This document shows positions 3,465 through 33,866 of a stretch of DNA of 43,750 nt, in pieces; positions within the stretch are counted from its first letter, which is position 1, and every line of letters starts with the position of its first letter. A model generated the notes under the pieces. The model ran no database searches. It was given only the letters and a program-made list of their open reading frames with translations, and had not been told where the DNA came from. A program made the translations under genes and the position numbers. Origin of the DNA: a virus; the IMG/VR virus record IMGVR_UViG_3300033143_003067. The stretch is one strand, 5' to 3'.

Positions 3465-4190
3465 ATGATTAAAAGAAACTCAAAAGGACAATTTGTTAAA
3501 GGAATTATTCCACATAATAAAGGAAAGCAATGGTCTAAAAAGCATAAAATAAAACTTAAGTTAGCTTGGATTAAAAGAAAGGAAAAAGGATATATAACTT
3601 GGAATAAGGGAAAACATATAAAAGTTAACGATGCTTTAAAAATATGGAGAGAAAATGGAGGTCAACCTTGGAATAAAGGTAAAAAAGAATTACAAGTTGC
3701 TTGGAATAAAGGAAAGGAAATGTCTAATAAATATAGAAAAAAATGTAGTAAAGCACAAAAAGGAAAAAAACTTTCTAAAGAAACAAAAAATAAATTAAGT
3801 AAAATAGCAAAAGAAAATGGATTTGGTCAATGGATGAAAGGTAAGAAGCTTTCTGAAGAAACAAAAAGGAAATGTAGTGAAGCACATAGAGGAAAAAAAT
3901 CATATAACTATAAAGGTAATTCTAAATTATGTCATCTTATAAGGAATTGTTATAAATATAAACAATGGACTAAAGCAGTTTTTGAAAGAGATAACTATAT
4001 TTGCCAAAAGTGTAAAATAAGAGGAGGAAAACTCCACGCTCACCATATTAAAAAGTTTAGTTTAATTTTAGAAGAAAATAATATCAAATCATTAAAAGAA
4101 ACACTTAATTGCGAAGAATTATGGAATATAAATAATGGCATAACATATTGTAAAATATGCCATAAAATAATACATAAAAAATATGCCTAA
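3465..4190 (+). CDS. HNH homing endonuclease with N-terminal NUMOD3-like repeats
   Basis: C-terminal CQKCK..HAHHI..NNGITYCKICH matches the HNH motif. WNKGK and KGKKLS.ETK.K modules repeat in the N-terminal part. Confidence 0.85.
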   Translation: MIKRNSKGQFVKGIIPHNKGKQWSKKHKIKLKLAWIKRKEKGYITWNKGKHIKVNDALKIWRENGGQPWNKGKKELQVAWNKGKEMSNKYRKKCSKAQKGKKLSKETKNKLSKIAKENGFGQWMKGKKLSEETKRKCSEAHRGKKSYNYKGNSKLCHLIRNCYKYKQWTKAVFERDNYICQKCKIRGGKLHAHHIKKFSLILEENNIKSLKETLNCEELWNINNGITYCKICHKIIHKKYA

Positions 4191-14946: not shown

Positions 14947-15507
14947 ATGCCAACAGGAATATATAAACATAAACCGCTTTCTAAAGAACATAAAAGAAAA
15001 ATAAGTGAAGCGATGAAAGGAAAGAGACCCCAAGATTATAAAAATTGGTGTCCAAGTTGTGGAATGAAAGGAAAAGTTGGTTATTGGAAAGGAAAAAAAA
15101 GACCATTGGCAGGACAATGGATGAAACAATTTAAAGGAAAAGGACTTCAATCTTGGATGAATATAAGTGGTTTAAAAAAAGGACAAGGTTGGAATAAGGG
15201 AGGAACTTCATGGAGTAAAGGTAAAAAATTATCTAAAGAACATGTAGAAAAAGTAAGACAATCTTTAATTAAAAGATCAGATAGAATTGGAAGGAAAAAA
15301 TATATAAGACCTAAACATAATACTCATTGGAAATATAGAGAATGGAGAAAATTAGTTTATGAAAGAGATAATTATAAATGTTGGATTTGTGAAGCTACTA
15401 ATTTGAATGCTCATCATTTGAAGTCGTGGGCTAAATATCCAAAATTAAGATACAAAGTAAATAATGGTTTAACTCTTTGTGAGTTTTGTCATAAAATATA
15501 TGCTTAA
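14947..15507 (+). CDS. HNH homing endonuclease with NUMOD3-like N-terminal motifs
   Basis: CWICEATNLNAHHLKSW..NNGLTLCEFCH matches the HNH motif. The N-terminus has MPTGIYKHKPLSKEHKRKISEAMKGK and WNKGG/SKGKKLSKEH repeats. Confidence 0.85.
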   Translation: MPTGIYKHKPLSKEHKRKISEAMKGKRPQDYKNWCPSCGMKGKVGYWKGKKRPLAGQWMKQFKGKGLQSWMNISGLKKGQGWNKGGTSWSKGKKLSKEHVEKVRQSLIKRSDRIGRKKYIRPKHNTHWKYREWRKLVYERDNYKCWICEATNLNAHHLKSWAKYPKLRYKVNNGLTLCEFCHKIYA

Positions 15508-16489
15508 ATTTATTACTAATTTCTTTAGAAATTTATTTAAAGAAAAAATAGAAAATGGAAAAGGTTGGACAAAAGATCCGACCGATTACAGAGATGTTTT
15601 ATTAGAATCAGTTATTAAAGATCGTGTTGATATACCAAAAACATATAATCTTCCATTTAAATTACCGATTAAGAATCAAGGAAGAGAACCTGCATGCGTA
15701 GGTTATGCCTGTTCTACTATTAAAGATTTTTTAGAATTAAAAGAACAAAATGAGATTGAGTTTGATGGATTATGGATTTATAAAAAAGCCAAAGAAATAG
15801 ATAATATGCCTAATTTTAAAGGAACTTATTTTAGGGCTGGTTTAAAAGTTTTACAGAAATTTGGAGCAAAACCATTAAATGGAAAAGAAGAAGATGCTGA
15901 AAAATATAAAATAGGAGGATATACTAAAGTTGAATCTAATTTTGAATCTATTAAAGAAGCTATTTATAGATTTGGGCCAGTGTTGGTTGGATTTAAAGGA
16001 TCTAATCAAGGTTGGAGGAATGCTCGTATTAGACCTCCAAAATTTGGTGAAAAAACATGGGGTCATGGTGTTGCTTTAGCGTTGGGATATACAAAAAATC
16101 TTATCATTATTCATAATTCTTGGGGTGAAAATAGAGGAGATAAAGGATATTTTTATTTTGATAAAAATTATCCTATAATATCTGCTCATGTTGTTTTAGT
16201 TGATCTTCCTAATAATTGGGCTGACCTTATTCCAAACAAGACCGACAAGCCCTCTCACTACTTCAGAGAGGACTTAAAAAGAGGTATGAGGGGTAGAGAG
16301 GTGGTAATGCTTCAAGATTGCTTAAAATGGCTTGGGTGCTTTGATAAAGCCATAGATAGCAGCGGTTTCTACGGCCAAATAACTCAAAACGCTGTTATTT
16401 GTTTTCAGAAGAGGTATAACATTTCCCCTCCTTATGGATATTTCGGCAAATTAAGTCGTGCTAAAATTAACGAAATACTTAATTCATAA
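15479..16489 (+). CDS. Endolysin candidate: papain-family (C1) cysteine peptidase fused to a C-terminal PG_binding_1-like domain. The likely start is ATG 15500.
   Basis: The Q67-x5-C73 spacing (NQGREPAC) matches papain. H196 (WGHGVAL) and N213 in NSWGENRGDKGYFYF complete the catalytic set. The C-terminus reads LKRGMRGREVVMLQDCLKWLG..FYGQITQNAVICFQK. Confidence 0.75.
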   Translation: MSFVIKYMLKFITNFFRNLFKEKIENGKGWTKDPTDYRDVLLESVIKDRVDIPKTYNLPFKLPIKNQGREPACVGYACSTIKDFLELKEQNEIEFDGLWIYKKAKEIDNMPNFKGTYFRAGLKVLQKFGAKPLNGKEEDAEKYKIGGYTKVESNFESIKEAIYRFGPVLVGFKGSNQGWRNARIRPPKFGEKTWGHGVALALGYTKNLIIIHNSWGENRGDKGYFYFDKNYPIISAHVVLVDLPNNWADLIPNKTDKPSHYFREDLKRGMRGREVVMLQDCLKWLGCFDKAIDSSGFYGQITQNAVICFQKRYNISPPYGYFGKLSRAKINEILNS

Positions 16490-16983: not shown

Positions 16984-17116
16984 ATGATACCGATCTGCCG
17001 CTATAAAGATACACAACAGACTTCATTTAGAAAAGTGTTTCCCTTGTTGACAATGAAGCCAAGCAAAAGGACTTATCCTAATAGCCAGCCCATCTTCTCA
17101 CGAGCAGATCAGTATC

Positions 17117-17671
17117 TTATTCAATGTCTTTAAAATAATGAGTAATTCCTAATCTTTTACAAACTCCTTTTAAAGTTTCTCTAACTTCATCATTAAAAGG
17201 ATTCATCTTTTTATCTTTTGTTAAAAAAGCATTTAATTCTTCTTGTATTCCATGTTCATAATCAAATCTTCCCATTTTTATCTTGATAATTTCATTCAGA
17301 AATCCTGCTACTATTATTATTGAAATCCCAGCCAAGAAAGATAGAGAAGGTATCCATACTTTAAGAAAAGTCATAATTACTGAAACCCTTGCCACATCTG
17401 GAATAACAAAGGCATTAAATAGTGAATACCAGTAATTTCCTCTTTCTCTCCAAGTTAATCTTTTAGATATTCCTAAAAAAAGTTTGCTTTTGGGGATATT
17501 CTTTTCGTTTAACTTTTGAAGGATATAATAGAATAATAATTCAAATATCTTTATTTTCCACCATTTTTTAATCATATATTTGATTCCAATAACTTTAATA
17601 TCTGCCAAAGAATATATGCTATTACTAAAAGAGTTATCCAGTTTAATCCTAAAGCTAATGCTTTTGTCCAT
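17117..17671 (-). CDS. Membrane protein, last gene of the early block
   Basis: Track ORF with hydrophobic segments VSVIMTFLKVWIPSLSFLAGISIIIVAGFL. An alternative internal start is possible. Confidence 0.65.
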   Translation of the reverse strand: MDKSISFRIKLDNSFSNSIYSLADIKVIGIKYMIKKWWKIKIFELLFYYILQKLNEKNIPKSKLFLGISKRLTWRERGNYWYSLFNAFVIPDVARVSVIMTFLKVWIPSLSFLAGISIIIVAGFLNEIIKIKMGRFDYEHGIQEELNAFLTKDKKMNPFNDEVRETLKGVCKRLGITHYFKDIE

Positions 17672-17683
17672 TGAACTTTTGTT

Positions 17684-17854
17684 TCATCGTTTGTCATCTT
17701 TAAGCCATTTTAGGAGTTTGATATAACAAGGTTTGCATAAATCAAAAGAATCTTTAAAATACCAACTTACTTCTTTGCGGGCCATTTTTTCAATTCTTAA
17801 TCTAAGTTCATCTTTCATTTCCTTTTTACACTTATCACAATAATGTTTAGTCAT
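17684..17854 (-). CDS. Zinc-ribbon microprotein (56 aa)
   Basis: Hand-translated codon by codon as MTKHYCDKCKKEM...LCKPCYIKLLKWLKDDKR, with CxxC...CxxC. Confidence 0.55.
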   Translation of the reverse strand: MTKHYCDKCKKEMKDELRLRIEKMARKEVSWYFKDSFDLCKPCYIKLLKWLKDDKR

Positions 17855-17856
17855 AG

Positions 17857-18219
17857 TTATTTAATTATATATTCCAGTTTTCTTACTAATTCTTCTTGAG
17901 ATTCTTCTAAATCATCAGTAGTAATATATCTTGTTTCCCCGTTATAAGCTAACCTTCCAATTAAAAGATGTATCATTTCGTGTTTAGCCACTATTTTAAT
18001 ATCTTCATCTGTAATTTTTTGGTAATTAACCCACTCTTCTGACAAAGTAATAGTAGCTATATATCCATTAAGATTATGATTTATACTCGCCCTATTTGTG
18101 TTTTTTTTCGCCCATCTAAAATGTAATTCCCAATTATGTAATTCAAATCTATCTTGCCAATATAGACATTCTTTTTTAAAATTATCAAAATGTTTATTTG
18201 TTAGTTTCATATTTGGCAA
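17857..18219 (-). CDS. Putative Zn-metallopeptidase-like protein (HExxH)
   Basis: It carries the VAKHEMIHLLIG motif. This is a track ORF of 120 aa. Confidence 0.5.
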   Translation of the reverse strand: MPNMKLTNKHFDNFKKECLYWQDRFELHNWELHFRWAKKNTNRASINHNLNGYIATITLSEEWVNYQKITDEDIKIVAKHEMIHLLIGRLAYNGETRYITTDDLEESQEELVRKLEYIIK

Positions 18220-18262
18220 GTGTATAATTCATAGATGTTATAGTGTTATTTAAGGTTTTCTT

Positions 18263-18367
18263 TTAAGGATAAGAAATTGAGCCGCAACCACAACACCATT
18301 GACTCATAAATCCACCGTGAGGAATATATATAAAATCGGGCATTTGAGGAAACTTTATCTTTTTCAT
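18263..18367 (-). CDS. Possible 34-aa Cys-rich peptide (…SQWCCGCGSISYP)
   Basis: Hand-translated ORF that fills the gap between two track ORFs. Confidence 0.3.
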   Translation of the reverse strand: MKKIKFPQMPDFIYIPHGGFMSQWCCGCGSISYP

Positions 18368-18375
18368 AGTTATAT

Positions 18376-18573
18376 TTAATTAGGTTTATTAAGTTCATCT
18401 AAAATAAAATCAGCTAATTCTGAATGAGTTGAATATTTTGTTTCAACTTTAAACTCTTTAAAAATCTTTATTATTTCTTTTTTAAGTTTTGCTTTCTTTC
18501 CTTTATTAGCTATACTAATTTTCTTTTTAGTTTCGTCCGAAAGTGGTTTTCTTTTATAAACTCCTGTTGGCAT
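18376..18573 (-). CDS. Stand-alone NUMOD3-like DNA-binding module (65 aa)
   Basis: MPTGVYKRKPLSDETKKKISIANKGKK closely matches the N-terminus of the 14947 HNH protein (MPTGIYKHKPLSKEHKRKISEAMKGK). Confidence 0.6.
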   Translation of the reverse strand: MPTGVYKRKPLSDETKKKISIANKGKKAKLKKEIIKIFKEFKVETKYSTHSELADFILDELNKPN

Positions 18574-18919
18574 ATTCTTTTAATTCTTTTAATACATTCT
18601 CATAATAAAAAATAGTTTGAAAAGAAACTTTGCTCCTACCAAGTGCTTTTTTCTTTAATTCATTATACCACAAAATACCCTTTTTCTCTACAATCTGGTC
18701 TGTTATCTTTTTTGGGTCTTGATGATGTAAAACGAAATGGCAACCCACACAAAGAGAAATACCATTATCTATATCAAAGCGTAGATGAGCATAACTTCCT
18801 TTATACCAGAAATGATGAACTTGAATTGCGGGTTTGTCGCATACTTCACATTTTGGCTTCAAACATACTTGAAAATATAACCTGTCTGCTTCTTTTCTTA
18901 ATCGTTTCTTTTTATCCAT
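18554..18919 (-). CDS. HNH endonuclease (121 aa)
   Basis: CEVCDKPAIQVHHFW..DNGISLCVGCHFVLHH matches the HNH motif. Confidence 0.8.
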   Translation of the reverse strand: MDKKKRLRKEADRLYFQVCLKPKCEVCDKPAIQVHHFWYKGSYAHLRFDIDNGISLCVGCHFVLHHQDPKKITDQIVEKKGILWYNELKKKALGRSKVSFQTIFYYENVLKELKEYANRSL

Positions 18920-18996
18920 AGATTAAAAACTGCCAAATTAACATACATTCCCAACAAATCCCAGAAGTGGTGTCGGTTTGGTTTATATAACAGATT

Positions 18997-19152
18997 TTAC
19001 AGGTCATTTATCTTCTTTTTTAAGTATTCAATAAACTCATCAACTTCTGCTTGAGCCATCATACTTCCTGTGTCAACATTCATTTCATTTTTCCATTCAA
19101 TATAATTTTCGGGTATTTGTTTAATTATTTCTTGTTTTGTTTCTTTTTTCAT
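18997..19152 (-). CDS. Small acidic protein (51 aa)
   Basis: Hand-translated as MKKETKQEIIKQIPENYIEWKNEM...; 52 codons checked. Confidence 0.45.
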   Translation of the reverse strand: MKKETKQEIIKQIPENYIEWKNEMNVDTGSMMAQAEVDEFIEYLKKKINDL

Positions 19153-19168
19153 ATATCTTTATGAGGAG

Positions 19169-19744
19169 TTAGAAATCTAATAATAGTAATCCGTCTTTTT
19201 TTATTTCTCCAAACTCGCTGTTAAAATCATTAGGATTAAATGGTTCTGTTATTATATGAGTTCCGTTTTTTGTAGGATATTGAAGGATTGTTTTTACTCC
19301 AATTTCCTTTAAATGATTTTCAACCATAGTAGAATGAAAAATTATATCATCAATATCTATCAAAAACTTTGTTTCAGCCCGACTGCTTGGTTTCATTAAA
19401 CTACTAATCCATTGATTTTTAATATCCAAATAAAATCCGTGCTTACTATCTACATCATAATAATCAGCGTCTAATTGTCTTCTTTTAAACTCTCTAATAG
19501 TTTTTTCAATATCTCGGGCATTAACACAACTATAAATCCTCATAGGAACATTGCTTTCGGCTTTTAATTTCTGTAATTTCTCCAATACTTCAATAAACTC
19601 CTCTCGGTTTTTAGTTATTCTTTTAATCCCATTTTTTTGCAGTCTGTTAGATTTTCCGCCTTCTTTATTTCTATGAACAAGCATAATAAACCTATATCCG
19701 TCCATAAAATCTTTAAATATCTCCTTTATATTATTCTTGGTCAT
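19169..19744 (-). CDS. Hypothetical protein (191 aa)
   Basis: Track ORF. It contains FLIDIDD and KNGTHIITEP motifs of uncertain meaning. Confidence 0.6.
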   Translation of the reverse strand: MTKNNIKEIFKDFMDGYRFIMLVHRNKEGGKSNRLQKNGIKRITKNREEFIEVLEKLQKLKAESNVPMRIYSCVNARDIEKTIREFKRRQLDADYYDVDSKHGFYLDIKNQWISSLMKPSSRAETKFLIDIDDIIFHSTMVENHLKEIGVKTILQYPTKNGTHIITEPFNPNDFNSEFGEIKKDGLLLLDF

Positions 19745-19803
19745 AAAATTAGTATCCTTTTATTTTTTAATAGATACTATGTCTTTATTTAGTATGTCTT
19801 TAT

Positions 19804-20010
19804 TTATAGTTTTATTAGGTTAGTTTTAGAGTTTTGTAATTTTATTGCTAATAACACAAAACCATAGAATCCTCCTATAAAAGTAAGAATAAATCCGAAT
19901 GGATTTTCTATTCCTATAATCAATCCAATAAAACACAAATAAAACATTACAGGTATTGGATATAACATTGGGATTAAAAATCTTTTTAAAGTTTCTTTAT
20001 TCATAGTCAT
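19804..20010 (-). CDS. Two-TM small membrane protein (68 aa)
   Basis: Track ORF with segments IPMLYPIPVMFYLCFIGLIIGI and ILTFIGGFYGFVLLAI. Confidence 0.6.
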   Translation of the reverse strand: MTMNKETLKRFLIPMLYPIPVMFYLCFIGLIIGIENPFGFILTFIGGFYGFVLLAIKLQNSKTNLIKL

Positions 20011-20011
20011 A

Positions 20012-20176
20012 TTAGGTTATTTTCTTTAATAATAAACAAACCCCGAAAATACCAATAATAAACCCTCCTAAAAAACTGAAAATATATGAAATTGGCGGTT
20101 CAATTAAAACATTCATTAAATATCCCCATAATCCTCCCGCTATAAGTATAATAATTATCTTTATTGCTATTTTCAT
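20012..20176 (-). CDS. Two-TM small membrane protein (54 aa)
   Basis: Hand-translated as MKIAIKIIIILIAGGLWGYLMNVLIEPPISYIFSFLGGFIIGIFGVCLLLKKIT; 55 codons checked. Confidence 0.5.
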   Translation of the reverse strand: MKIAIKIIIILIAGGLWGYLMNVLIEPPISYIFSFLGGFIIGIFGVCLLLKKIT

Positions 20177-20188
20177 AAGGTTATTAGG

Positions 20189-20422
20189 TTAGCCAGAGCC
20201 ATAGCCAGAGCCAGAGCCATAGCCAGAGCCATCGCCAGAGCCAGAGCCATAGCCATAGCCATCGCCATAGCCATAGCCATCGCCATAGCCAGAGCCAGAG
20301 CCATCGCCATAGCCATCGCCATAGCCAGAGCCATAGCCAGAGCCATAGCCATAGCCATAGCCAGAGCCATCGCCAGAGCCATCGCCAGAGCCACGCATAT
20401 ATTCTTTATCTATTGTTTCCAT
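20189..20422 (-). CDS. Glycine-dipeptide repeat protein, METIDKEYMR-(G-[S/D/Y])x33-G
   Basis: Track ORF. Its ATG overlaps the end of the upstream gene, and its stop lies 12 nt before the next ATG. The codons form a strict (GGC-TCT/GAT/TAT) array. Confidence 0.55.
   Translation of the reverse strand: METIDKEYMRGSGDGSGDGSGYGYGYGSGYGSGYGDGYGDGSGSGYGDGYGYGDGYGYGSGSGDGSGYGSGSGYGSG
20192..20392 (-). repeat. About 33 tandem hexamers, GGC-[TCT/GAT/TAT] on the - strand
   Basis: On the + strand this reads as AGAGCC / ATCGCC / ATAGCC units without interruption. Confidence 0.9.
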
Positions 20423-20769
20423 ATTTTTACTGAAGCTATACTTTCTTGAGCTTCTTTAGAACAATCCAAGATTTCTATTGCTTCTAATAGTTCAACACTA
20501 TCTACTTCTACTGGAAACTTACAATTTTCAGGTTTGGATACTCCTTCCATTGCTAATTGGGATAAAGAAGCCGCACCTTCCCAATACCACAATCTACGAG
20601 CTTTTAATAATATAACTTCTTTGTTTTTTCGGCTTTTTAAATATCCAGCAAAAACTCCCGCTGAATAAGTGCGAATAATCACATAAGGCATTCCTTTTAA
20701 AGAAATAGCTTTTGTTTTAACTTCGCTTTGTGGGACATATTTTATCCCGTCTATTGTTATTGTTTTCAT
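20410..20769 (-). CDS. Hypothetical protein (119 aa; RLWYWEGAASLSQLA motif)
   Basis: Track ORF in the early operon. Confidence 0.65.
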   Translation of the reverse strand: MKTITIDGIKYVPQSEVKTKAISLKGMPYVIIRTYSAGVFAGYLKSRKNKEVILLKARRLWYWEGAASLSQLAMEGVSKPENCKFPVEVDSVELLEAIEILDCSKEAQESIASVKIWKQ

Positions 20770-20799
20770 AATTATTTACCCATTCCCATAAATAGGTAG

Positions 20800-20979
20800 T
20801 TAGTCATAGTTAGAAAGCAGTTTAAAGCTCCAGCTCCCGCTCCCGCTCCTGCTACTGCTCCTGCTACTGCTCCCGCTCCAGCTCCAGCTCCTGCTCCAGT
20901 TCCTGTTCTCGCTCCCGCTCCAGCTCCAGTTCCTGCTCCAGCTCCAATTTAATATATTATAAGAATTTATTAAAAACAT
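20800..20979 (-). CDS. Repeat microgene unit A. The ATG frame gives MFLINSYNILNW + W/S/R-rich (59 aa). The +1 frame gives Gly-Ala repeats. The frame is unresolved.
   Basis: Hand-translated. 20 GGAGCN-type hexamers lie at 20826-20946. All three - strand frames are open. Confidence 0.35.
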   Translation of the reverse strand: MFLINSYNILNWSWSRNWSWSGSENRNWSRSWSWSGSSSRSSSRSGSGSWSFKLLSNYD

Positions 20980-20994
20980 ATTACCAAAAAGCAG

Positions 20995-21135
20995 TTAAAA
21001 GCTCCAGCTCCTGCTCCTGCTCCAGCTCTCGCTCCTGTTCCCGCTCCAGTTCCAGCTCTTGCTCCCGCTCCTGCTCCCACTCCTGTTCCCGCACCATCTC
21101 CAATTTAATATATTATAAGAATTTGTTAAAAACAT
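20995..21135 (-). CDS. Repeat microgene unit B, paralogue of unit A (ATG frame 46 aa). The frame is unresolved.
   Basis: The ATG lies 1 nt after the stop of 21137..21448. 17 hexamers lie at 21001-21102. The 44-nt head is identical to unit A apart from 1 nt. Confidence 0.35.
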   Translation of the reverse strand: MFLTNSYNILNWRWCGNRSGSRSGSKSWNWSGNRSESWSRSRSWSF

Positions 21136-21136
21136 A

Positions 21137-21448
21137 TTACCAATTGGGAGACCAAAAACTCTCAATAGCATTTCTCATAACATATACATTACTTGGAAGT
21201 TCTTGCTTATCTACTGGATTACTTGCTTTAAGTTCGCCAGTTTCATAAATTATGCTTGCTTTTGTAAGCTCTATGTAATTAGCATTTATGCTTTCGACCT
21301 TTCCGTAATAAATATATCTCGCGCATTGAAAGAGATATGTCTTGCCAATAAGCTCATCAAGGTTCTCTATTTCTTGAACCTCACTTTCGCCTGATTGTTC
21401 TTTTATCTTGTCATAGGTTTCATCTGAAACCTCAATTGTTTTTGTCAT
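21137..21448 (-). CDS. Hypothetical protein (103 aa)
   Basis: Track ORF. Confidence 0.65.
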   Translation of the reverse strand: MTKTIEVSDETYDKIKEQSGESEVQEIENLDELIGKTYLFQCARYIYYGKVESINANYIELTKASIIYETGELKASNPVDKQELPSNVYVMRNAIESFWSPNW

Positions 21449-21519
21449 CTTATTTTCTCAATCCCATAAATTGAGTATTAACTTATACATTTTTATCTTT
21501 AATCTTATTGATTATTCTC

Positions 21520-21602
21520 TTTTGGGGGGCGAGGTATACCTCCTATCCATAGTCCCTATCACTAAGGCATTAGGATTTCGCTGGTAGCCCAGACCCCCAG
21601 AA
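21520..21602. other. GC-rich multi-hairpin element in an intergenic gap (candidate small structured RNA)
   Basis: The closing helix is TTTTGGGGG 21520-21528 / CCCCCAGAA 21594-21602. Inside are the palindrome GAGGTATACCTC (21531-21542) and three 4-bp hairpins. Confidence 0.35.
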
Positions 21603-21639
21603 AAAAACAATCTTTATATATCTCTTTGTTGTTTCATAG

Positions 21640-21876
21640 TTATTTAAGTTGTTTTAAAATGTCTTGGAGGGCTTGGTTATTTCCAGCAGAAAAAGCCATT
21701 GATTGTCCCCTAAAATGTGAATACTTTTTTTGGTCTACTTTATTCTCAAAATCTTTTCTGGTAATTATATTCATTCCTTTAATTACATCTCTAACTTTTT
21801 TAATAGCATCATCTTCCCCCTTTTCATATCCCTCTAATTTAGCTAATGCTATTATTTCTTTGTTTTCTTCAGTCAT
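21640..21876 (-). CDS. Hypothetical protein (78 aa)
   Basis: Track ORF. Confidence 0.6.
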   Translation of the reverse strand: MTEENKEIIALAKLEGYEKGEDDAIKKVRDVIKGMNIITRKDFENKVDQKKYSHFRGQSMAFSAGNNQALQDILKQLK

Positions 21877-22049
21877 AGTTATTTAAGTTTATTTAATATA
21901 TCTTGGAGTTTTTGATAAGTATGGCAAGTATCACATCCACCACAAAATTGATTTTCATGGTGAAATCAAATATATAACTATACAGGCGATTAATATAACA
22001 ACGAATAATGTATCCATTTTTTTGTCAGTAGTTTTTATTAAGCTACTGA

Positions 22050-22238
22050 ATAGAATGCTGAATTGTTATAGCTTGGGCGAATTCTTTATATGCCTTTAGG
22101 CAATATGTAAGAATTGTTGATGAACAAGTTAGATACAAGCTGATTAGTCAATTAAGATTAATACTTTGCTTGGTGCAACCCAAGTTATAAACAGATTACG
22201 CTCTTGCGACAATCTATATTCAGCATTCTATCAAGAGC
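22050..22238. repeat. 14-bp perfect long-range inverted repeat closing a ~180-nt non-coding segment, interleaved with a 7-bp inverted repeat
   Basis: ATAGAATGCTGAAT 22050-22063 pairs with ATTCAGCATTCTAT 22218-22231. GCTCTTG 22200-22206 pairs with CAAGAGC 22232-22238. Confidence 0.8.
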
Positions 22239-22475
22239 TTAGATTTCTTTTAATTCAAAATCTTCGTTTTTTAATTCTTTGTTTCGTAATTCTTCTAATA
22301 CTTCAGTTATTTGAATTCCGTCTATATTATCAGCTATTTTATTAAACTCTTTTGCTATAAAAAACTCTGATAATTTCTGGGCTTCGTCAAAAGTTAATTC
22401 TGAATTTTTAGCGGAAAAAGTATCACTTTCATAAACTCTTAAATAATCTGTAAGAACATTTATGGGATGTCTCAT
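22239..22475 (-). CDS. Hypothetical acidic protein (78 aa)
   Basis: Track ORF. Confidence 0.6.
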   Translation of the reverse strand: MRHPINVLTDYLRVYESDTFSAKNSELTFDEAQKLSEFFIAKEFNKIADNIDGIQITEVLEELRNKELKNEDFELKEI

Positions 22476-22564
22476 AATTCTAATTATTAACTTTTCTAAT
22501 GAACGACCTTTTGAGGATTGCTCCTCATTCTGCCTCAGGACACGCTCTAAAGCAGAATCAAGAG

Positions 22565-22873
22565 CTATCTTTTATTAACCTTGTGTCGTTTTCGGCATTT
22601 CATTCTATTTAAAATCTTTTTCTTTAATCCTCTTATTTTTTTAAAAGTATCTTGGCGGATTTTCTTATTTTCTTTTAAACAATCATTGAAACCCTGCCGA
22701 TATGCTTCTATTAGTTTCTCGGCAAGGAATTGCTTAATGTCTTCTAACGCACTTTCTGGTAGATATTCAGGAATACCATCTATATCTTTGCCATAATAAC
22801 AACCTCCGTGTTCTTCACTAAACTTCTCATCAAACTCCTCGCTTATTTTTTTATCTAACTTTGAGATAGACAT
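22565..22873 (-). CDS. Hypothetical protein (102 aa), paralogous N-terminus to 23359..23652
   Basis: KLDKKISEEFDEKFSEEHGG...IKQFLAEKL resembles KLKPKIEKEFDKKFQEYDG...IEQFLAEKL in 23359..23652. Confidence 0.6.
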   Translation of the reverse strand: MSISKLDKKISEEFDEKFSEEHGGCYYGKDIDGIPEYLPESALEDIKQFLAEKLIEAYRQGFNDCLKENKKIRQDTFKKIRGLKKKILNRMKCRKRHKVNKR

Positions 22874-23354
22874 TGATTTTGTCTCTTGTCTCTTGCCTGT
22901 TAATATTTATTATATTTTTTAAGATTTCGTCTTCACTTTTTGAAATCCCTTCTGTATAATGAATAGGACAAAAAGGATTAGTTCGAAAATTACTACACTT
23001 ACAACCATATCCAAGTTTAGTAAGAATATGCTGTAATCTTAAAATCATTTCTTCTGGCTTCCATTTTTTGGGTTGGGATTCTTTCTTATCAAATCGTGTT
23101 TTTCCACATTTTTTACACCTATAACCATTATAACAATATACTGGATTACTATTGCTATGAGAACCTACAATAAATTCCCATTCGTGGTCGCATTTTTTTG
23201 GTTGGGAGTTTACAGCTAATTCCACACCGCATTCTTCACACAAATATTTGGCATTGTCTTCTTCTTTATTATGGGAATCTATTAGTTCGTTGATTTTTTC
23301 TCCTATCTCATATCTACTTAAACTTTTTCCTAAATCTAACTTTTGTATTTTCAT
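22851..23354 (-). CDS. Cys-rich multi-zinc-ribbon protein (167 aa)
   Basis: CEECG..KKCDHEW, CKKCGK and CKCSN..FCPIH motifs. Confidence 0.6.
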   Translation of the reverse strand: MKIQKLDLGKSLSRYEIGEKINELIDSHNKEEDNAKYLCEECGVELAVNSQPKKCDHEWEFIVGSHSNSNPVYCYNGYRCKKCGKTRFDKKESQPKKWKPEEMILRLQHILTKLGYGCKCSNFRTNPFCPIHYTEGISKSEDEILKNIININRQETRDKINVYLKVR

Positions 23355-23358
23355 AGTT

Positions 23359-23652
23359 TTATTTTAAGTTAAATAATCTTGGTTTGCCACAAATCTTACA
23401 ATAACTTCCACTTAAAAACCAAATATATTTATATTTACAACCAAATATTTTATGAAGTATTTTATAGATTTGTATTTTCATATTTATTTTTAAATCTTTT
23501 TGAGCCAGTTTCTCGGCAAGGAATTGCTCAATGTCTTTCTTTAATAGAGCATCACAATATCCTTTATTATTTTTAATCCAAATACCATCATATTCTTGAA
23601 ACTTCTTATCAAACTCTTTTTCTATCTTAGGTTTTAACTTTTGTATTTTCAT
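23359..23652 (-). CDS. Hypothetical protein (97 aa) with a C-terminal CxxC
   Basis: Track ORF with a YCKICGKP tail. Confidence 0.6.
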   Translation of the reverse strand: MKIQKLKPKIEKEFDKKFQEYDGIWIKNNKGYCDALLKKDIEQFLAEKLAQKDLKINMKIQIYKILHKIFGCKYKYIWFLSGSYCKICGKPRLFNLK

Positions 23653-23656
23653 AGTT

Positions 23657-24040
23657 TTATTTTATCTTCTTATAAATTACATAATTCTTATCCCGACTTA
23701 ACTTAATACCATACTTTTTCCATTGTTCATTTACATATTGTTCTTCTCCTAAATCTCTTAATAAACCGGAAGCGAATACTATCTTAGCTGTTTGCTGGAC
23801 ATACTTGCTTTTAACACTATTATCAAATTCTTTTCCTTTTAAACCATAAACTTCTTTATTAGTTTGTTTTCTGGCTCGGAAACCTTTTAAGCAATCGTAT
23901 CCTTCTAAGGCCAGATTATGTTCTATTAAATCGTGGAGTTTGGTTTTGAGATGGATTTTGAGTTCAGGGGTTTTGTTTTTTGTTTCAGAAAAGAGATATC
24001 CTATTGTTAAGAATAGTAGGGCTATGAGTAGGGAGTTCAT
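23657..24040 (-). CDS. Secreted or membrane-anchored protein (127 aa)
   Basis: The N-terminal hydrophobic segment is MNSLLIALLFLTIGYLF. Confidence 0.6.
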   Translation of the reverse strand: MNSLLIALLFLTIGYLFSETKNKTPELKIHLKTKLHDLIEHNLALEGYDCLKGFRARKQTNKEVYGLKGKEFDNSVKSKYVQQTAKIVFASGLLRDLGEEQYVNEQWKKYGIKLSRDKNYVIYKKIK

Positions 24041-24195
24041 TTTTCTTTACAAACTTTACATTTATATTTTGGATTTAATTTCTTATTATTCTTATCCATT
24101 TCTCTACGGCCTTCTGCTGTTTTACATTGAGGACAGTATTTGTCTTTACCTTTTGCTTGAACGCTACAATGGGAACAAAGTGTTATTATTGGCAT
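24037..24195 (-). CDS. Zinc-ribbon microprotein (52 aa)
   Basis: Hand-translated as MPIITLCSHCSVQAKGKDKYCPQCK...CKVCKEK. It is ATGA-coupled to the next gene. Confidence 0.5.
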   Translation of the reverse strand: MPIITLCSHCSVQAKGKDKYCPQCKTAEGRREMDKNNKKLNPKYKCKVCKEK

Positions 24196-24197
24196 AT

Positions 24198-24443
24198 TTA
24201 TCTAGGTTTTTTAGGTTTAACTGAAACTAACTTATAATAACGATATGATGAAATCATTGGATTATTATCATAATATAGTGCGATAATATCATATCCTTTT
24301 TCTTCCCAACATCTTTTACATAAAGATAAAGTGCTATATTCCTCCCAACTTTTATCCCATAAAATAGGCACTTCTTTTATTTTCCAACTTACAACTAATG
24401 TTCCACATTCATCACACGCTTTACTTTTTTTGTAGCTTTTCAT
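24198..24443 (-). CDS. Zinc-binding small protein (81 aa)
   Basis: ACDECGT...LCKRCW. Confidence 0.6.
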   Translation of the reverse strand: MKSYKKSKACDECGTLVVSWKIKEVPILWDKSWEEYSTLSLCKRCWEEKGYDIIALYYDNNPMISSYRYYKLVSVKPKKPR

Positions 24444-24444
24444 A

Positions 24445-24624
24445 TTATTTAGTTTCTTCTATTTCAGGTTCTATTATTATTTTATAAACACCACTGGGAA
24501 GTTTAGGAATATCTTTTATATTGTCATATTCATCTAATCCTGTATCCACCTCAATTCTAAAACCTTTATCTGTTCTTAATTGTTTTAGGAATACATCGTA
24601 TCCTTTGAAGACTATTTTTTCCAT
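24445..24624 (-). CDS. Hypothetical protein (59 aa)
   Basis: Hand-translated as MEKIVFKGYDVFLKQLRTDKGF...EPEIEETK, one codon below the track cutoff. Confidence 0.5.
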   Translation of the reverse strand: MEKIVFKGYDVFLKQLRTDKGFRIEVDTGLDEYDNIKDIPKLPSGVYKIIIEPEIEETK

Positions 24625-24818
24625 AATTTTGCCATTTTAATATGCGAACAATCCCGTTTATACATTGAAGCCACACAATCGCAAAAATACTTATTATTTT
24701 CATCAACTTCCACAATATGATAGCTATTAGGTTCTGATTTACTGGGGACTTTATATTTTTTAACTATCTTTCCTCTGCCAGTTCGTTCTTGAACATAATC
24801 TTGGAGTGTCTTACTCAT
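24612..24818 (-). CDS. SWIM-type zinc-finger protein (68 aa)
   Basis: CDCVASMYKRDCSH fits CxCx(n)CxH. Confidence 0.6.
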   Translation of the reverse strand: MSKTLQDYVQERTGRGKIVKKYKVPSKSEPNSYHIVEVDENNKYFCDCVASMYKRDCSHIKMAKLWKK

Positions 24819-25173
24819 CTCTATCTACAGGCACTTCCTCAAACTTATCTTTTTCCTCTAATGGGAAATCAGTTTTAAATACTTCCACTTCATACTTTGT
24901 ATCCATACCCTCGCCTGTTCTGGTAATCTTAATCTTAGAGTCTTCTTTTACTTCACTCATCTGGTCGGCAAAAGAAGCTGACTGGCTATCTAAGTTCCGA
25001 ACCTGTTTATCTTCTAAATCTTCTAAAAGATAACGGGCATACTCTTTAGTTTCTCCAAAGCTATCTTTTTCTATAAACTTGTATCCTTTATATACACAGG
25101 AATAGCTTTCTCCTGCTTTTATACTAACGAAGTTTGATTTTGATTTAGCGTATTCGTCTAATGTTTTTGTCAT
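24811..25173 (-). CDS. Acidic hypothetical protein (120 aa)
   Basis: Track ORF in the recombination/replication neighbourhood. Confidence 0.6.
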   Translation of the reverse strand: MTKTLDEYAKSKSNFVSIKAGESYSCVYKGYKFIEKDSFGETKEYARYLLEDLEDKQVRNLDSQSASFADQMSEVKEDSKIKITRTGEGMDTKYEVEVFKTDFPLEEKDKFEEVPVDRDE

Positions 25174-25194
25174 AATAGTTTTTTATTATATTTA

Positions 25195-25422
25195 TTAAAT
25201 TATTATTTCAGATTTTTCAAATGGAACTTCAAGCTCTTTATGAAATGCCAATGATTTCTTAAAGTTATCCATTGCTATTTTTTGGGCTTTTTCTAACTTT
25301 TTATGAAATCCATTTTCTAATATGCTTTGTTTATTTTCTCCACGATAACACCATAATCCACAACACCACTTTTTAATACTTGGAAAGTATTTTATTTCTT
25401 GTGTTAATTTTAAGTTTTCCAT
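25195..25422 (-). CDS. Hypothetical protein (75 aa)
   Basis: Track ORF. Confidence 0.55.
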   Translation of the reverse strand: MENLKLTQEIKYFPSIKKWCCGLWCYRGENKQSILENGFHKKLEKAQKIAMDNFKKSLAFHKELEVPFEKSEIII

Positions 25423-25431
25423 AATTTTTAT

Positions 25432-26100
25432 TTATTCTTTATTATCCTTACAATGAGAATGATAGCGACAGAATTTGCTACGCCAGTCCTTATCGTCATA
25501 AAGGGGAAGAATAGATGGGTCTTTTTTCTTCCACGCTTTATTAAGCAGTTCTAACTCTTTCATAACTTCGTTATAGAGTGCCTTATTATCCCTTAAGACG
25601 GGATATTGGAGTATAGTCATATCATCTTTGCTGACATACACTAAACTGCCCTTAGATATCTTTGTAAGCCATAGATAGAGCCATAGCTGGTATTGATGAT
25701 GCCTATGTGCGCCTTCTCCCTTCTTCTCCATCCACCAAAAGGACTTTGAGTGTTTGGATTTAATCTCGTATAACTCTGTATCTCCATTAACTCCGAGTTT
25801 TAAGTCAGCATAACCTGATACATTTAAATCTTTGTCTTCTACTCTAATCTGGGTTTCTACTTTGATGTTAGGATTTAAGGTTAGCTGTTCTACTACCCAA
25901 TCCTCAATCTTATTTCCTATATCAAATACTCTTAAAGTTCTATCGTCTATTTCTGTATCTGGTTTAACGCCTAATCGTTCATAATAAACACCTCTTAAAC
26001 AAGAACCTAATCTGCTGATATGCCAAGAAGTTATTTCTTTCTTTTCTCTTTTATTCTTTTCTTTAAGAGTTTTGTTGATTATGTCTTGAATTGGAATCAT
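25432..26100 (-). CDS. PD-(D/E)xK nuclease, Cas4/RecB-like exonuclease
   Basis: GYADLKL...ELYEIKS supplies the D..ExK core. QYQLWLYLW is the QhxxY motif. There is an N-terminal Cys (LGSCLRG) and a C-terminal FCRYHSHC. Confidence 0.7.
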   Translation of the reverse strand: MIPIQDIINKTLKEKNKREKKEITSWHISRLGSCLRGVYYERLGVKPDTEIDDRTLRVFDIGNKIEDWVVEQLTLNPNIKVETQIRVEDKDLNVSGYADLKLGVNGDTELYEIKSKHSKSFWWMEKKGEGAHRHHQYQLWLYLWLTKISKGSLVYVSKDDMTILQYPVLRDNKALYNEVMKELELLNKAWKKKDPSILPLYDDKDWRSKFCRYHSHCKDNKE

Positions 26101-26390: not shown

Positions 26391-26397
26391 AATAGTT

Positions 26398-27086: not shown

Positions 27087-27092
27087 AATAGT

Positions 27093-27737: not shown

Positions 27738-27763
27738 GGTTTGTTATTATTTTTCTTCTTCCC

Positions 27764-30043: not shown

Positions 30044-30418
30044 ATGACTCCTAAGCAACAGAAGCTAATAAATATCATTACAGAGAATTACAGAGATAAA
30101 AAAACTACAAAAACTTTAAAGAAAATGCTCTTGGAAGCTGGATATACTACTGAAACTTCAGAACAGGCAATTAGGATATTAGAAAGTAAAACTATTCAAG
30201 ATAAATTATCTCCTATTGTTGATAAATTAAATAAAAAAAGAGATAAAGCATTAAAGTTTATTTCAGATGAGAAATTAAAAAAGAGTTCAGCAAGAGATTT
30301 ATCAGGTATAGTAGATGTTTTAACTAAAAACTCTCAACTATTATCAGGCAAAGAAACAGAAAAAGCAGGTATAACTATTGAAGTAGTAGATTATGATAAA
30401 GATAACAATTCCCCATGA
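30044..30418 (+). CDS. terS: Terminase small subunit (putative)
   Basis: 124 aa, helical and basic, immediately upstream of terL and overlapping it. Confidence 0.6.
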   Translation: MTPKQQKLINIITENYRDKKTTKTLKKMLLEAGYTTETSEQAIRILESKTIQDKLSPIVDKLNKKRDKALKFISDEKLKKSSARDLSGIVDVLTKNSQLLSGKETEKAGITIEVVDYDKDNNSP

Positions 30419-31682
30419 ATATACGCCAAGAAGTTATCAGTTAGAACTTTTAAAAGCACCACAAAGATTCAAGATAGCTGTCTGGAATAGAAGAAGCGGT
30501 AAATCTAAAACAGCTCTTAATCAGCAGATAGCCAGAACACAAAAAAGAAAAGGTATCTACTATTATTTCCTCCCAACTTATAAACAAGCCAAGCAGGTAA
30601 TATGGGATGCATTAGTTAAAGAACATATCCCTCTTGAAATAGTAGATAAATTAAACGAAAGTGAGTTAGCAGTTTATTATAAGAACGGAAGTATTCAAAG
30701 ATTTGCTGGTTGTGAGGATATAGATAAACATAGAGGAATAGGCCCGATAGATATAGTTTTTGATGAGTATGCTGAGATTAACGAGGAAATGTGGAATGCT
30801 ATTATTCAGCCGGTATTAAGAGAAAATCAAGGCACAGCCACATTTATCTTCACTCCTAAAGGAAAGAACCACGCTTGGAAGTTATTAGAAAAGGCTAAGC
30901 AGAATCCTAATTACTGGTATTGGAGCGTAAAAGATGTTTATGAAACCGACTCCATACCCTTAGAAGAGATAGAAGAAGCTAAGCGAGATATGACTGAGGT
31001 TCTTTTTAATCAGGAGTTTCTCTGTGAGTTTCACGAAGGAGCTGGTCAGGTATTTAGAAGAATAAAAAAGAATCTTTATAGTGGTCATTTAAGCATAGAA
31101 GCAGATAAGAGATTTAGAATAGGAGTAGATCTAGCCAAGCATCAGGATTGGACTGTTCTTACTCCATTTGACCTTACAAGCTTCAAGGTAGGACATCAGG
31201 ATAGATTCAACCAGATAGATTGGAACTTACAAGAAGCGCGCATAGAAGCTATGCATTTGAGGTATAATAAGGCCTTGATACGAGTAGATAGCACAGGAGT
31301 TGGAGACCCTATCTATGAAAATCTTAGTAAAAAGAGATTACCAGTAGAATCTTATCAATTCACAGAACGAAGCAAGCAGGCATTGTTTGAAAATCTCGTT
31401 ATCTTATTAGAAAAAGATAAGATAAAGCTTCCTAATGATATAGGGTTGATAGAAGAATTAGAAAGCTGGCAGTATAAATATGACGAGAAGACTAAGAAGA
31501 TTAAAATGGAAACTAACACCACAGATGACCGAGTAATAAGTTTAGCCTTAGCAGTCTGGGACTTGCCTAATGTTCCATTAAGTTATCAAAAAGAAAGAGA
31601 ACGAGAAATCTTGAGCCAATTTGACCATTATAAAGATAAACCACTCAAACAGCGAGGAGTGGAGAAGTATAAGATATTATGA
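30393..31682 (+). CDS. terL: Terminase large subunit
   Basis: Walker A-like NRRSGKSKT. Walker B IDIVFDEYAE. The nuclease half has GVDLAKHQDWTVL, RVDSTGVGDPIYE and TDDRVISLALAVW. Confidence 0.85.
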   Translation: MIKITIPHEYTPRSYQLELLKAPQRFKIAVWNRRSGKSKTALNQQIARTQKRKGIYYYFLPTYKQAKQVIWDALVKEHIPLEIVDKLNESELAVYYKNGSIQRFAGCEDIDKHRGIGPIDIVFDEYAEINEEMWNAIIQPVLRENQGTATFIFTPKGKNHAWKLLEKAKQNPNYWYWSVKDVYETDSIPLEEIEEAKRDMTEVLFNQEFLCEFHEGAGQVFRRIKKNLYSGHLSIEADKRFRIGVDLAKHQDWTVLTPFDLTSFKVGHQDRFNQIDWNLQEARIEAMHLRYNKALIRVDSTGVGDPIYENLSKKRLPVESYQFTERSKQALFENLVILLEKDKIKLPNDIGLIEELESWQYKYDEKTKKIKMETNTTDDRVISLALAVWDLPNVPLSYQKEREREILSQFDHYKDKPLKQRGVEKYKIL

Positions 31683-32309: not shown

Positions 32310-33866
32310 ATGGACGAAAAAATAATACTATTCAATAAAACAGCTAAAGACAAATTATTAAAAGGAATAAACAAAGTAGCAGACGCAGTAAAGATAACGC
32401 TGGGTGCTACTGGCAGGAATGTAGTAATAAAAGATGAAGTAGTCCCAGCTTTCTCCACGAATGACGGAGTATATATATCCCGTAAGATACACTTAAGAGA
32501 TGAAGTAGAAGAAGCTGGAGCTGATATTATAAAAGGAGTAGCAGAACATACTAACGAAGCAGTAGGAGATGGCACAACTACTTCAATCGTCTTGGCTCAA
32601 GCTCTTATTAACGAAGGATTAAAGTATAAGGTAAATCCCTTAAAGATAAGAGCTGGAATGAAAAAGGGATTAGAAGTTCTTATCAAAGAGATAGAAAAGT
32701 TAGCCAAGCCTATTAAAACAAAAGAAGAAATGAAGCAGATAGCCACTATATCTGCTGAAAACGAGGAGATAGGAGAGCTTATCGCTGATACTATCAAGGA
32801 AGTAGGGCAAGATGGTGTTATCAAGATAGAAGAGTCTAAGACATTTGGATTAGAGAAAGAAATAGTGGGAGGTATTCAGTTTAATAGTGGATATATATCT
32901 CCATATATGATAAATAAGTTTGATAAATTAGAAGCTGAATATGAAGATCCATTGTTCTTAATAACTGATAAAAAGATTTCTATGGCTAAGTCTGAATTGA
33001 TGCCCATATTAGAGAAAGTAGCCCAATCAGGTAAGAAAGAGCTGGTAGTCATAGCAGAAGATATAACTGATTCAGCTTTAGCTACCTTAGTAGTTAATAA
33101 AGAAAGAGGTTTGTTTAATGCTCTGGGGATAAAAGCACCCGATAAGGAAGTATTACAAGATTTAGCTCTTATTACTGGAGCAACGCTAATATCAGAGGAA
33201 ACAGGATTAAGATTAGAAAGTTTTGAGATGAAACATCTGGGTAAAGCTAAGAAAGTAATTTCCACTAAAGATAATACTACGATTATAGGGGGTAAGGGTA
33301 ATGTTAAAGATAAAATTAAGCAAATTAAGGCAGAAATAGAGAAATCTAAACAATCTGCTGATTTATTAGAAAGATTAGCTCGTCTTACAGGAGGAATAGC
33401 AGTTATTAGCGTAGGCGCTGCTACTGAAATAGAGAGAAAAGCCAAGCAACACAAGGTAGAAGATGCTCTGAATGCTACTAAAGCTGCTGTTGATGGAGGG
33501 ATTGTGGCAGGGGGGGGAGTTGTGTTGTTAAGATTAAGGAAAACAAAGATGTATGCTTATGATAAAGATGAAGAAACAGGAAGTAAGATATTAAAAAAGG
33601 CATTAGAAGCTCCTATTAAGCAGATGGCAGAAAACGCTGGATTAGAGGCAGATAAACTTATAGCAAGTATATTAGAAAAAGACGAAATAAATTACGGATA
33701 CAATTTTAATACTAATAAATACGAGGATTTAGTTGAGAATAAAGTAGTTGACCCAGCTAAGGTCCTAATATCTACATTAACCAATGCTGTTTCAGCTGCT
33801 GGTATATTTCTTACAACAGATTGTGTTATAGCAAAAAAAAGGTTGCCATTAAATAATGGCAGATAA
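32310..33866 (+). CDS. groEL: Chaperonin GroEL (518 aa, no C-terminal GGM tail)
   Basis: AVGDGTTTSIVLAQAL, VISVGAATEIERKAKQHKVEDALNATKAAVDGGIVAGGGVVLL and VVDPAKV are GroEL signatures. Confidence 0.92.
   Translation: MDEKIILFNKTAKDKLLKGINKVADAVKITLGATGRNVVIKDEVVPAFSTNDGVYISRKIHLRDEVEEAGADIIKGVAEHTNEAVGDGTTTSIVLAQALINEGLKYKVNPLKIRAGMKKGLEVLIKEIEKLAKPIKTKEEMKQIATISAENEEIGELIADTIKEVGQDGVIKIEESKTFGLEKEIVGGIQFNSGYISPYMINKFDKLEAEYEDPLFLITDKKISMAKSELMPILEKVAQSGKKELVVIAEDITDSALATLVVNKERGLFNALGIKAPDKEVLQDLALITGATLISEETGLRLESFEMKHLGKAKKVISTKDNTTIIGGKGNVKDKIKQIKAEIEKSKQSADLLERLARLTGGIAVISVGAATEIERKAKQHKVEDALNATKAAVDGGIVAGGGVVLLRLRKTKMYAYDKDEETGSKILKKALEAPIKQMAENAGLEADKLIASILEKDEINYGYNFNTNKYEDLVENKVVDPAKVLISTLTNAVSAAGIFLTTDCVIAKKRLPLNNGR

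Follow-up and report, generated by a model that had tools for sequence, protein, structure and literature searches.

The cellular RNA chaperone Hfq of Acinetobacter, which has the canonical Hfq sequence, carries in cis a long, disordered, glycine-rich C-terminal domain of GGFGGQ repeats, which combine Gly with an aromatic residue, with an acidic tip, both needed for function, and the number of repeats matters in that system (PMC11617691). Acidic Hfq C-termini compete with RNA. The eukaryotic Sm proteins B, D1 and D3 bear RG-dipeptide tails and LSm4 an RGG tail that mediate higher-order assembly. These tails are basic, methylated and attached in cis. In phages, the uncharacterised early proteins GoF, MotB.1 and Frd.2 of T4 are recognised as LSm-like only through structure prediction and are suspected to act on RNA (PMC12152347). 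Dense GYG/SYG motifs in a Gly/Ser background characterise the [G/S]Y[G/S] low-complexity domains of the FUS type, which are S/G/Y/Q-rich with very few charged residues and undergo phase separation. Dipeptide periodicity encoded by short tandem DNA repeats that expand and contract in frame is found in the GX repeats of the Bombyx fibroin heavy chain and the Ser-Asp repeats of staphylococcal Sdr/Clf proteins. The latter are secreted structural or surface proteins with X = Ala/Ser (fibroin) or no Gly (SD repeats), and their codons are not uniform.

Here we analyse a phage gene for a protein made almost wholly of Gly-X dipeptides (X = Ser, Tyr or Asp) that overlaps the gene for an uncharacterised DUF6948 protein with a predicted Sm-like fold. 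In contrast to Acinetobacter Hfq, the repeat region is a separate and probably translationally coupled ORF that is only rarely fused, the repeat is a dipeptide rather than a hexapeptide, and DUF6948 has no sequence similarity to Hfq/LSM. Compared with the eukaryotic Sm and LSm4 tails, the array is acidic and aromatic and contains no Arg or Lys. DUF6948 belongs to a different sequence family from the T4 proteins, for which no Gly-X partner is described in the abstract of that study. The array resembles FUS-type domains in its predicted disorder and in its 13 Tyr residues, all in GYG, but its alternation is strict, it shows no Gln or Asn enrichment (there is no Gln), its Asp content is high (7 of 67 residues, 10%), and the protein has only 77 residues. 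It differs from fibroin and the SD repeats in being a small, predicted cytoplasmic phage protein paired with DUF6948. Low-complexity Gly-rich tails on Sm-type proteins and in-frame tandem-repeat proteins are both already described. What appears to be new is the split arrangement, the suggested translational coupling, the strict dipeptide repeat, the acidic/aromatic composition and the phage-wide distribution. Searches on DUF6948, fibroin heavy chain-like phage proteins, dipeptide-repeat phage proteins and the GSGYGSG motif gave nothing relevant, and we found no description of the pairing in the literature we could search.

The repeat gene and its surroundings

The window, a stretch of 43,750 nucleotides from the IMG/VR virus record IMGVR_UViG_3300033143_003067, is a tailed-phage genome. 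Its plus-strand genes include a terminase, a P22-like portal, capsid, an SU10-type adaptor, a beta-helix fibre and a papain-like/PG-binding lysin. A minus-strand block holds small early-type genes, including an HNH/NinG-like nuclease. A DNA similarity search with positions 17000..24000 against 50,697 GenBank phages gave no match.

Coordinates of the features discussed, numbered along the window
Feature	Coordinates	Strand	Description
Gly-X gene	20189..20422	-	77 codons plus TAA; predicted pI 4.05, net charge -8.5
Start codon of the Gly-X gene	20422..20420	-	ATG
Leader	20422..20393	-	10 residues, METIDKEYMR
Hexanucleotide array	20192..20392	-	67 codons (201 nt): 33 hexamers plus a final GGC
DUF6948 gene	20410..20769	-	119-aa protein, Pfam PF22253 (E 1e-32), pI 9.06
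Stop codon of the DUF6948 gene	20410..20412	-	
Overlap of the two genes	20410..20422	-	13 nt
Next ATG	20176		12 nt after the Gly-X stop
Second open frame	20173..20394		MA/LA repeats, GTG start
Two-TM gene	20012..20176		
Two-TM gene	19804..20010		
Gly-Ala unit	20826..20946		in a 156-bp tandem duplication with the other unit
Gly-Ala unit	21000..21102		in a 156-bp tandem duplication with the other unit
Terminase	30393..31682	+	
Early-type gene block	about 17000 to 29000	-	small genes

The original prediction described an early-operon gene of 33 strict GGC-NNN hexamers without synonymous variation, and this observation was confirmed. The ORF reads ATG GAA ACA ATA GAT AAA GAA TAT ATG CGT, followed by GGCTCT (13 copies), GGCTAT (13 copies) and GGCGAT (7 copies). 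Gly is GGC in 34 of 34 cases, Ser TCT in 13 of 13, Tyr TAT in 13 of 13 and Asp GAT in 7 of 7. TRF reports a period of 6 with 34 copies. The exact unit count in this assembly is not guaranteed, since the array is longer than typical short reads, could be mis-sized by short-read assembly, and many related contigs end inside their arrays. The array is 61% GC in a 32.9% GC window. In 25 long ORFs of the window, Gly is encoded by GGA (58%), GGT (24%), GGC (10%) and GGG (8%), and TCT makes up 35% of Ser codons. Under this usage the exclusive use of GGC has P of about 1e-34 and that of TCT about 1e-6, whereas TAT and GAT are simply the preferred codons of the genome. The three hexamers form a one-step mutational chain (TCT-TAT-GAT), and the array is therefore best explained as a shuffled and expanded set of three unit types. 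The leader contains no double-glycine or signal motif.

Database searches with the Gly-X protein were largely uninformative. Pfam matches of Gly-X sequences to TrAA12 and KRTAP, and sequence matches in the PDB, were rejected as composition-driven matches to Gly/Ser/Tyr linkers, and PHROGs and NCBIfam returned nothing. Rfam gave only sub-threshold miRNA-type matches to the repeat, and promoter and terminator scans did not exceed shuffled expectation. Exact-pattern scans for near-identical relatives returned no hits in a metagenome collection and one viral hit (locus L089), a chance match in an unrelated gene. A phmmer search of 1.84 billion representative proteins recovered only 187 hits because of composition filtering, making it useless for counting but useful for finding domain architectures.

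Pairing with DUF6948 across phages

The DUF6948 gene, mentioned in the original prediction only as an overlapping ORF, is the real conserved partner. We used it to retrieve 80 IMG/VR loci (48-74% identity). In about 70 of these the ORF at or overlapping the DUF6948 stop is a (Gly-X)n array in the Gly-X frame, and most of the rest are cut by contig ends. The test was repeated on an independent set of 80 loci from GTDB genomes and MAGs of CPR bacteria, Firmicutes, Proteobacteria, Acidobacteria, Chlamydiae, Ignavibacteria, Cyanobacteria and a few archaeal bins, where a Gly-X ORF is present in 67 of 71 evaluable loci. Together these roughly 150 loci span 39-88% DUF6948 identity. Six of the seven apparent exceptions examined still carry a degenerate G/S/Y/D-rich ORF starting at -13 relative to the DUF6948 3' end, which keeps the composition but loses the alternation, and only L058 has none. 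Some loci carry extra Gly-X paralogues away from the canonical position.

The start of the Gly-X gene lies 13 nt inside the DUF6948 3' end in about 60 of 80 viral loci and in 47 of the 71 evaluable genome/MAG loci. The codon at -13 is ATG in 55 and GTG in 5 of 65 distinct cases. In the window, the ATG is formed by the base before, plus the first two bases of, the invariant Trp117 codon of DUF6948. This geometry suggests translational coupling.

Cultured phages also carry the pair. The Gly-X gene is annotated as hypothetical in Pectobacterium phage Ymer and relatives and as 'fibroin heavy chain-like protein' in Ralstonia phage NK-7, is unannotated in Iodobacter phage phiPLPE, and is annotated in the wrong MA/LA frame (gene_25) in Chlorobiaceae phage CV-1-33. 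The pair is CDS0033/0032 in Ymer and XCO36016/XCO36015 in NK-7. DUF6948 has at least 7,991 homologues in a collection of 5.8 billion proteins.

Within each genome the array uses essentially one codon per amino acid, with a median uniformity of 0.98 and 25 of 62 arrays perfectly uniform. Between genomes the codon sets differ: Gly is GGC, GGT, GGA or GGG, Ser is TCT, TCC, AGC or TCA, Tyr is TAT or TAC, and Asp is GAT or GAC. The amino acid composition nevertheless stays constant. Of non-Gly array residues, S accounts for 37%, Y 26%, D 21%, F 4%, N 4%, C 2% and Ala 0.9%, whereas Lys, Arg, Glu, Gln, Leu, Ile, Val and Pro are nearly absent. The family can be defined by this composition (about 45-50% Gly, no basic residues in the array, a short leader and little or no C-terminal tail), by the position behind DUF6948, and by uniform codons within but not between genomes together with variable unit number, and the window gene fits on each count. 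Since TCN and AGY serine codons are two mutational steps apart, the conserved entity is the protein and not a nucleotide motif. Peptides from the alternative frames are unrelated between genomes (MA/LA here, GPGT in GC-rich loci). That relatives might lack the ORF or keep the repeat in varying frames had been named beforehand as grounds for regarding it as non-coding, whereas in relatives the frame, the start position and the composition are conserved.

Repeat-number change is directly visible. The related loci L065 and L067 have 92-98.6% identical flanks and arrays that differ by exactly 120 nt, or 20 units. In a fused variant, proteins that are 98% identical outside the array range from 186 to 242 aa, with the length variation confined to the array. 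The nearest relatives of the window, at 88, 85 and 76% DUF6948 identity, keep the leader (MEEIDTEYMRG, MEKLTKKDMCG, MERIDKEYMRG), but their arrays differ in length and unit mix, with Gly-X proteins of 89 aa in L086 and 121 aa in L088. Because the unit is 6 nt, slippage never breaks the frame or the downstream genes and tunes length rather than switching the gene on and off.

The wider module proposed in the original prediction, comprising two Gly-Ala-type units upstream and two small two-TM proteins downstream, is not conserved. A homologue of one of the two-TM genes lies upstream of DUF6948 in L086, and neither is seen in L087 or L088. Only 14 of 114 downstream neighbours have any predicted TM segment. 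The Gly-Ala units are absent from the closest relatives. Their 46-nt spacer is nearly identical between copies (45 of 46), and an exact-pattern scan with it found no hit. Three frames are open across most of each Gly-Ala array: a W/R/G-Ser frame with an ATG one base after the preceding TAA, a Gly-Ala/Thr frame that has no canonical start but ends 2 nt before the DUF6948 ATG, and a Glu-Leu/Gln/Arg frame that stops early in unit 2. Flanking genes of the pair are a changing mix of early recombination, replication and accessory functions (AAA_24, RusA, SSB, YqaJ, RecT, ERF, Gp157, Cro/HTH and, occasionally, Tad2 or Acb2) and provide no consistent functional context.

Predicted fold of DUF6948 and fusions of the array

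An AlphaFold2 model of the DUF6948 protein, built from a 55-sequence alignment, is confident (pLDDT 93.3, pTM 0.80). All 50 best Foldseek matches in the PDB are Sm/LSm proteins, including archaeal SmAPs, spliceosomal Sm, Lsm1-7/2-8 and the Edc3 LSm domain, with modest E-values of 3e-3 to 2e-2, a probability of 1.00, target-normalised TM mostly 0.45-0.7 (up to 0.71 for archaeal SmAPs) and an RMSD of about 2 Å over about 80 columns for the best. The model has five main strands, but a helix is inserted between strands 3 and 4, and a beta-hairpin takes the place of the N-terminal helix that usually precedes the bent five-stranded Sm sheet. Viral structural matches are other DUF6948 proteins plus entries named 'RNA binding protein' and 'Sm-like domain'. 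At the sequence level Pfam returned only DUF6948, with no LSM hit, and a profile search of PDB sequences found no Sm protein. We therefore call the protein Sm-like in predicted fold only, and any RNA binding or formation of a hexameric or heptameric ring is inferred by analogy.

Several observations link the array to DUF6948 beyond gene order. Locus L076 carries an in-frame fusion of the two. Searching with the Gly-X protein alone recovered arrays attached to three other domains: a roughly 70-aa 'GAC-motif' helical domain, a DUF7666-like domain (on either side of the array) and a 155-aa 'AHG...WHHxLTGSCxxGR' domain (on either side of the array). Of seven such genes looked up, five of the six evaluable have a DUF6948 gene immediately upstream, whereas one Gly-X protein (P0274, in locus L175) has no DUF6948 neighbour. 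The 155-aa domain had no Pfam or PHROG hit, no PDB sequence hit and no Foldseek match (best E 0.12), and has no recognisable fold. The predicted charges of the two proteins are opposite (family median pI of DUF6948, 8.4). In a fused homologue, the Gly-X stretch is modelled as disordered (pLDDT below 50) between well-folded parts. The constant feature is therefore a predicted Sm-like DUF6948 followed by a protein carrying a (Gly-[Ser/Tyr/Asp])n array, and everything else varies.

Interpretation and alternatives

We conclude with high confidence that the Gly-X ORF is a real protein-coding gene and the second half of a conserved two-gene phage cassette, and we regard this as demonstrated by the analysis. 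The same holds for its mode of evolution: selection acts on amino acid composition while the DNA array is continually rebuilt by in-frame gain and loss of hexamers, which explains one codon per amino acid within a genome, different codon sets between genomes and length differences in multiples of 6 nt. The interpretation given in the original prediction is thus partly supported. Its proposals of a Gly-X coding frame, a homogenised and slippage-prone repeat, a length-variable product and a predicted disordered chain hold. Its view of the array as something other than an old coding sequence is not supported, since the gene family is ancient and widespread and only the individual arrays are young.

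What the pair does is inferred. We tentatively favour a model, held at somewhat less than even confidence, in which the Gly-X polypeptide is an intrinsically disordered, acidic, Tyr-studded tail supplied in trans to the basic, predicted Sm-like protein and made in step with it by translational coupling. It may modulate the nucleic acid binding of a putative Sm-like oligomer as an acidic, nucleic-acid-like competitor, or it may provide multivalent Tyr 'stickers' for higher-order, possibly condensate-like, assembly, two sub-models that the present data do not separate. The evidence for contact between the two proteins is indirect, resting on adjacency and a single fusion, and the Hfq, eukaryotic Sm/LSm4 and T4 proteins are precedents by analogy, not by membership. 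Where the array is fused to other domains, it would tether them to the DUF6948 assembly. In this view the cassette acts early in infection, within the recombination/replication/accessory gene region. Condensate formation, also raised in the original prediction, rests purely on analogy and is unlikely on present evidence. In its most far-reaching form, which we likewise consider unlikely, DUF6948 and its partner would be a split, phage-wide Sm-like ribonucleoprotein system. The dipeptide-repeat polypeptide would act as a detachable low-complexity tail or address tag that drives the Sm-like oligomer, and any client domain fused to an array, into a condensate-like assembly on phage RNA or ssDNA early in infection, with repeat number tuned rapidly by slippage. 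This would be a prokaryotic-virus counterpart of eukaryotic Sm/LSm proteins with Gly-rich tails.

Among the alternatives, a decoy, anti-defence or host-takeover role survives best, although it is unlikely. In this case the acidic polypeptide, with DUF6948 as chaperone or co-factor, would titrate a host protein such as a nucleic-acid-binding defence or RNA-decay factor. The position in the variable early/accessory region, the Tad2-like and Acb2/Tad1 anti-defence genes nearby in a few loci, the nucleic-acid-like charge and the rapid turnover of length and composition typical of arms-race genes are compatible with it. However, there is no direct evidence, the Pfam, PHROGs and NCBIfam searches gave no support, and the conservation of composition across hosts from CPR bacteria to Proteobacteria argues against a host-specific target.

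Less likely still is an autonomous silk- or amyloid-like structural protein whose alternating chain forms beta-sheets with a Gly face and an X face and builds a fibre or scaffold independently of DUF6948. Strict Gly-X alternation is the fibroin crystalline pattern, Tyr-rich Gly repeats can stack, and the NK-7 annotation points the same way. However, fibroin consists of (GAGAGS)n-type blocks in a very large secreted protein, whereas the window array has no Ala, the family has almost none and about 21% Asp among its X residues, and the net charge is about -0.10 per residue. In addition, the segment is modelled as disordered, the protein is only 43-168 aa without a signal peptide, degenerate homologues lose the alternation, and the near-obligate link to DUF6948 is left unexplained.

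A non-coding role of the array as DNA (iterons, recombination hotspot) or RNA (protein sponge) is very unlikely. All three sense frames are open, Gly uses a codon rare in this genome, and gene callers often pick another frame or none (CV-1-33, phiPLPE and the JGI call in L088), but the nucleotide motif is not conserved while composition, frame and start codon are, degenerate non-repetitive versions keep the composition, arrays are fused in frame to folded domains, and no Rfam family reaches its threshold. A secreted microcin- or bacteriocin-like peptide with the two-TM proteins as export or immunity partners is equally improbable: Gly/Ser-rich small peptides next to small membrane proteins resemble class II microcin loci, but the double-glycine or signal leader is missing, the TM genes are not syntenic, and there is no transporter or maturation gene. 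A variable region of a diversity-generating retroelement, in which AAY template codons become NNY, can be dismissed, since despite variation confined to the first two positions of the X codon with a fixed third-position pyrimidine, which is formally the NNY pattern of these elements, no reverse transcriptase was hit among the roughly 29 window ORFs scanned, no template-like second copy occurs in the window, only 3 of 16 NNY codons are used, in a one-step chain, and arrays differ in unit number, which these elements do not produce.

DUF6948 occurs in phages or prophage-like contigs assigned to CPR bacteria, Firmicutes, Proteobacteria, Acidobacteria, Chlamydiae, Cyanobacteria and others, and the Gly-X genes that follow nearly every one of the loci examined here are often missed, called in the wrong frame or lost at contig ends. 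Recognising the pair gives a simple annotation rule and a clean natural example of concerted evolution, in which protein composition is selected while the DNA array turns over. It also yields a testable hypothesis that many phages deploy a predicted Sm-like protein together with a tunable low-complexity partner, for which cultured models already exist in the Pectobacterium Ymer group, Ralstonia NK-7 and Iodobacter phiPLPE. If the pair forms RNA- or ssDNA-containing assemblies, it would bear on how phages organise early gene expression or recombination.

Chaperonin, putative lysin and homing-endonuclease-like genes

The window encodes a protein between the terminase and the portal that matches the Cpn60/TCP-1 chaperonin family over its full length (Pfam E 2e-64). 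This is a phage-encoded chaperonin in a genome of only 44 kb. Two ORFs that contain NUMOD3 or HNH domains and resemble homing endonucleases are inserted among the structural and lysis genes. A putative lysin combines an unusual papain-family Peptidase_C1 domain with a PG_binding_1 domain.

Coordinates of features in the window and in related loci
Sequence	Coordinates	Strand	Feature
Window	3465..4190	+	NUMOD3- or HNH-containing ORF
Window	14947..15507	+	NUMOD3- or HNH-containing ORF
Window	15479..16489	+	Putative lysin
Window	19169..19744		191-aa ORF
Window	19778..19806		Perfect 15-bp direct repeat, TATGTCTTTATTTAG x2
Window	19804..20010	-	Second small ORF resembling a two-TM protein
Window	20012..20176	-	First small ORF resembling a two-TM protein
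Window	20826..20946	-	(GGAGCN)n hexamer array
Window	21000..21102	-	(GGAGCN)n hexamer array
Window	about 20832..21143		156-bp tandem duplication
Window	32310..33866	+	518-aa chaperonin-family ORF
L087	814..1233		Pentapeptide-repeat gene
L088	4406..4729		JGI gene call

Sequences flanking the cassette

The two (GGAGCN)n hexamer arrays lie within the tandem duplication and are separated by a nearly identical 46-nt spacer (45 of 46). Three sense frames, none of which could be singled out as coding, are open across most of each array. The W/R/G-Ser frame has an ATG start, the Gly-Ala/Thr frame has only an ATT after a TAA, and the Glu-Leu/Gln/Arg frame stops early in unit 2. No homologues of these units were found, and they are absent from the closest relatives.

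The two adjacent small ORFs look like two-TM proteins, judging from sequence appearance alone. A homologue of the second lies upstream of DUF6948 in the related locus L086, and the two ORFs move independently of the cassette. The direct repeat occupies the short gap between the second of these genes and the 191-aa ORF and may be a regulatory site. In the closest relative (L087, 88% DUF6948 identity), the gene just upstream of DUF6948 encodes a pentapeptide-repeat protein (ADLREANLQGVDLWEANL...), a class that includes DNA-mimic gyrase protectors.

Annotation and domain partners of Gly-X genes

Public annotations mishandle the Gly-X genes of Chlorobiaceae phage CV-1-33 (L085, MT192033 gene_25), the related locus L088 and Iodobacter phage phiPLPE (L082, NC_011142, between gp84 and gp83). 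Two are called in the MA/LA frame and one is not called at all. Many contigs also terminate inside the array, including those of loci L001, L004, L010, L023, L050 and L087.

A widespread domain of about 150 aa with invariant AHG, K, HH..TGSC..GR and YGG motifs was found in proteins P0121-P0259 and P0365 and loci L075, L077, L079 and L080, with 2,059 homologues. It has no Pfam or PHROG family and no PDB fold match. The domain always carries a Gly-X array, at either end, and sits downstream of DUF6948.
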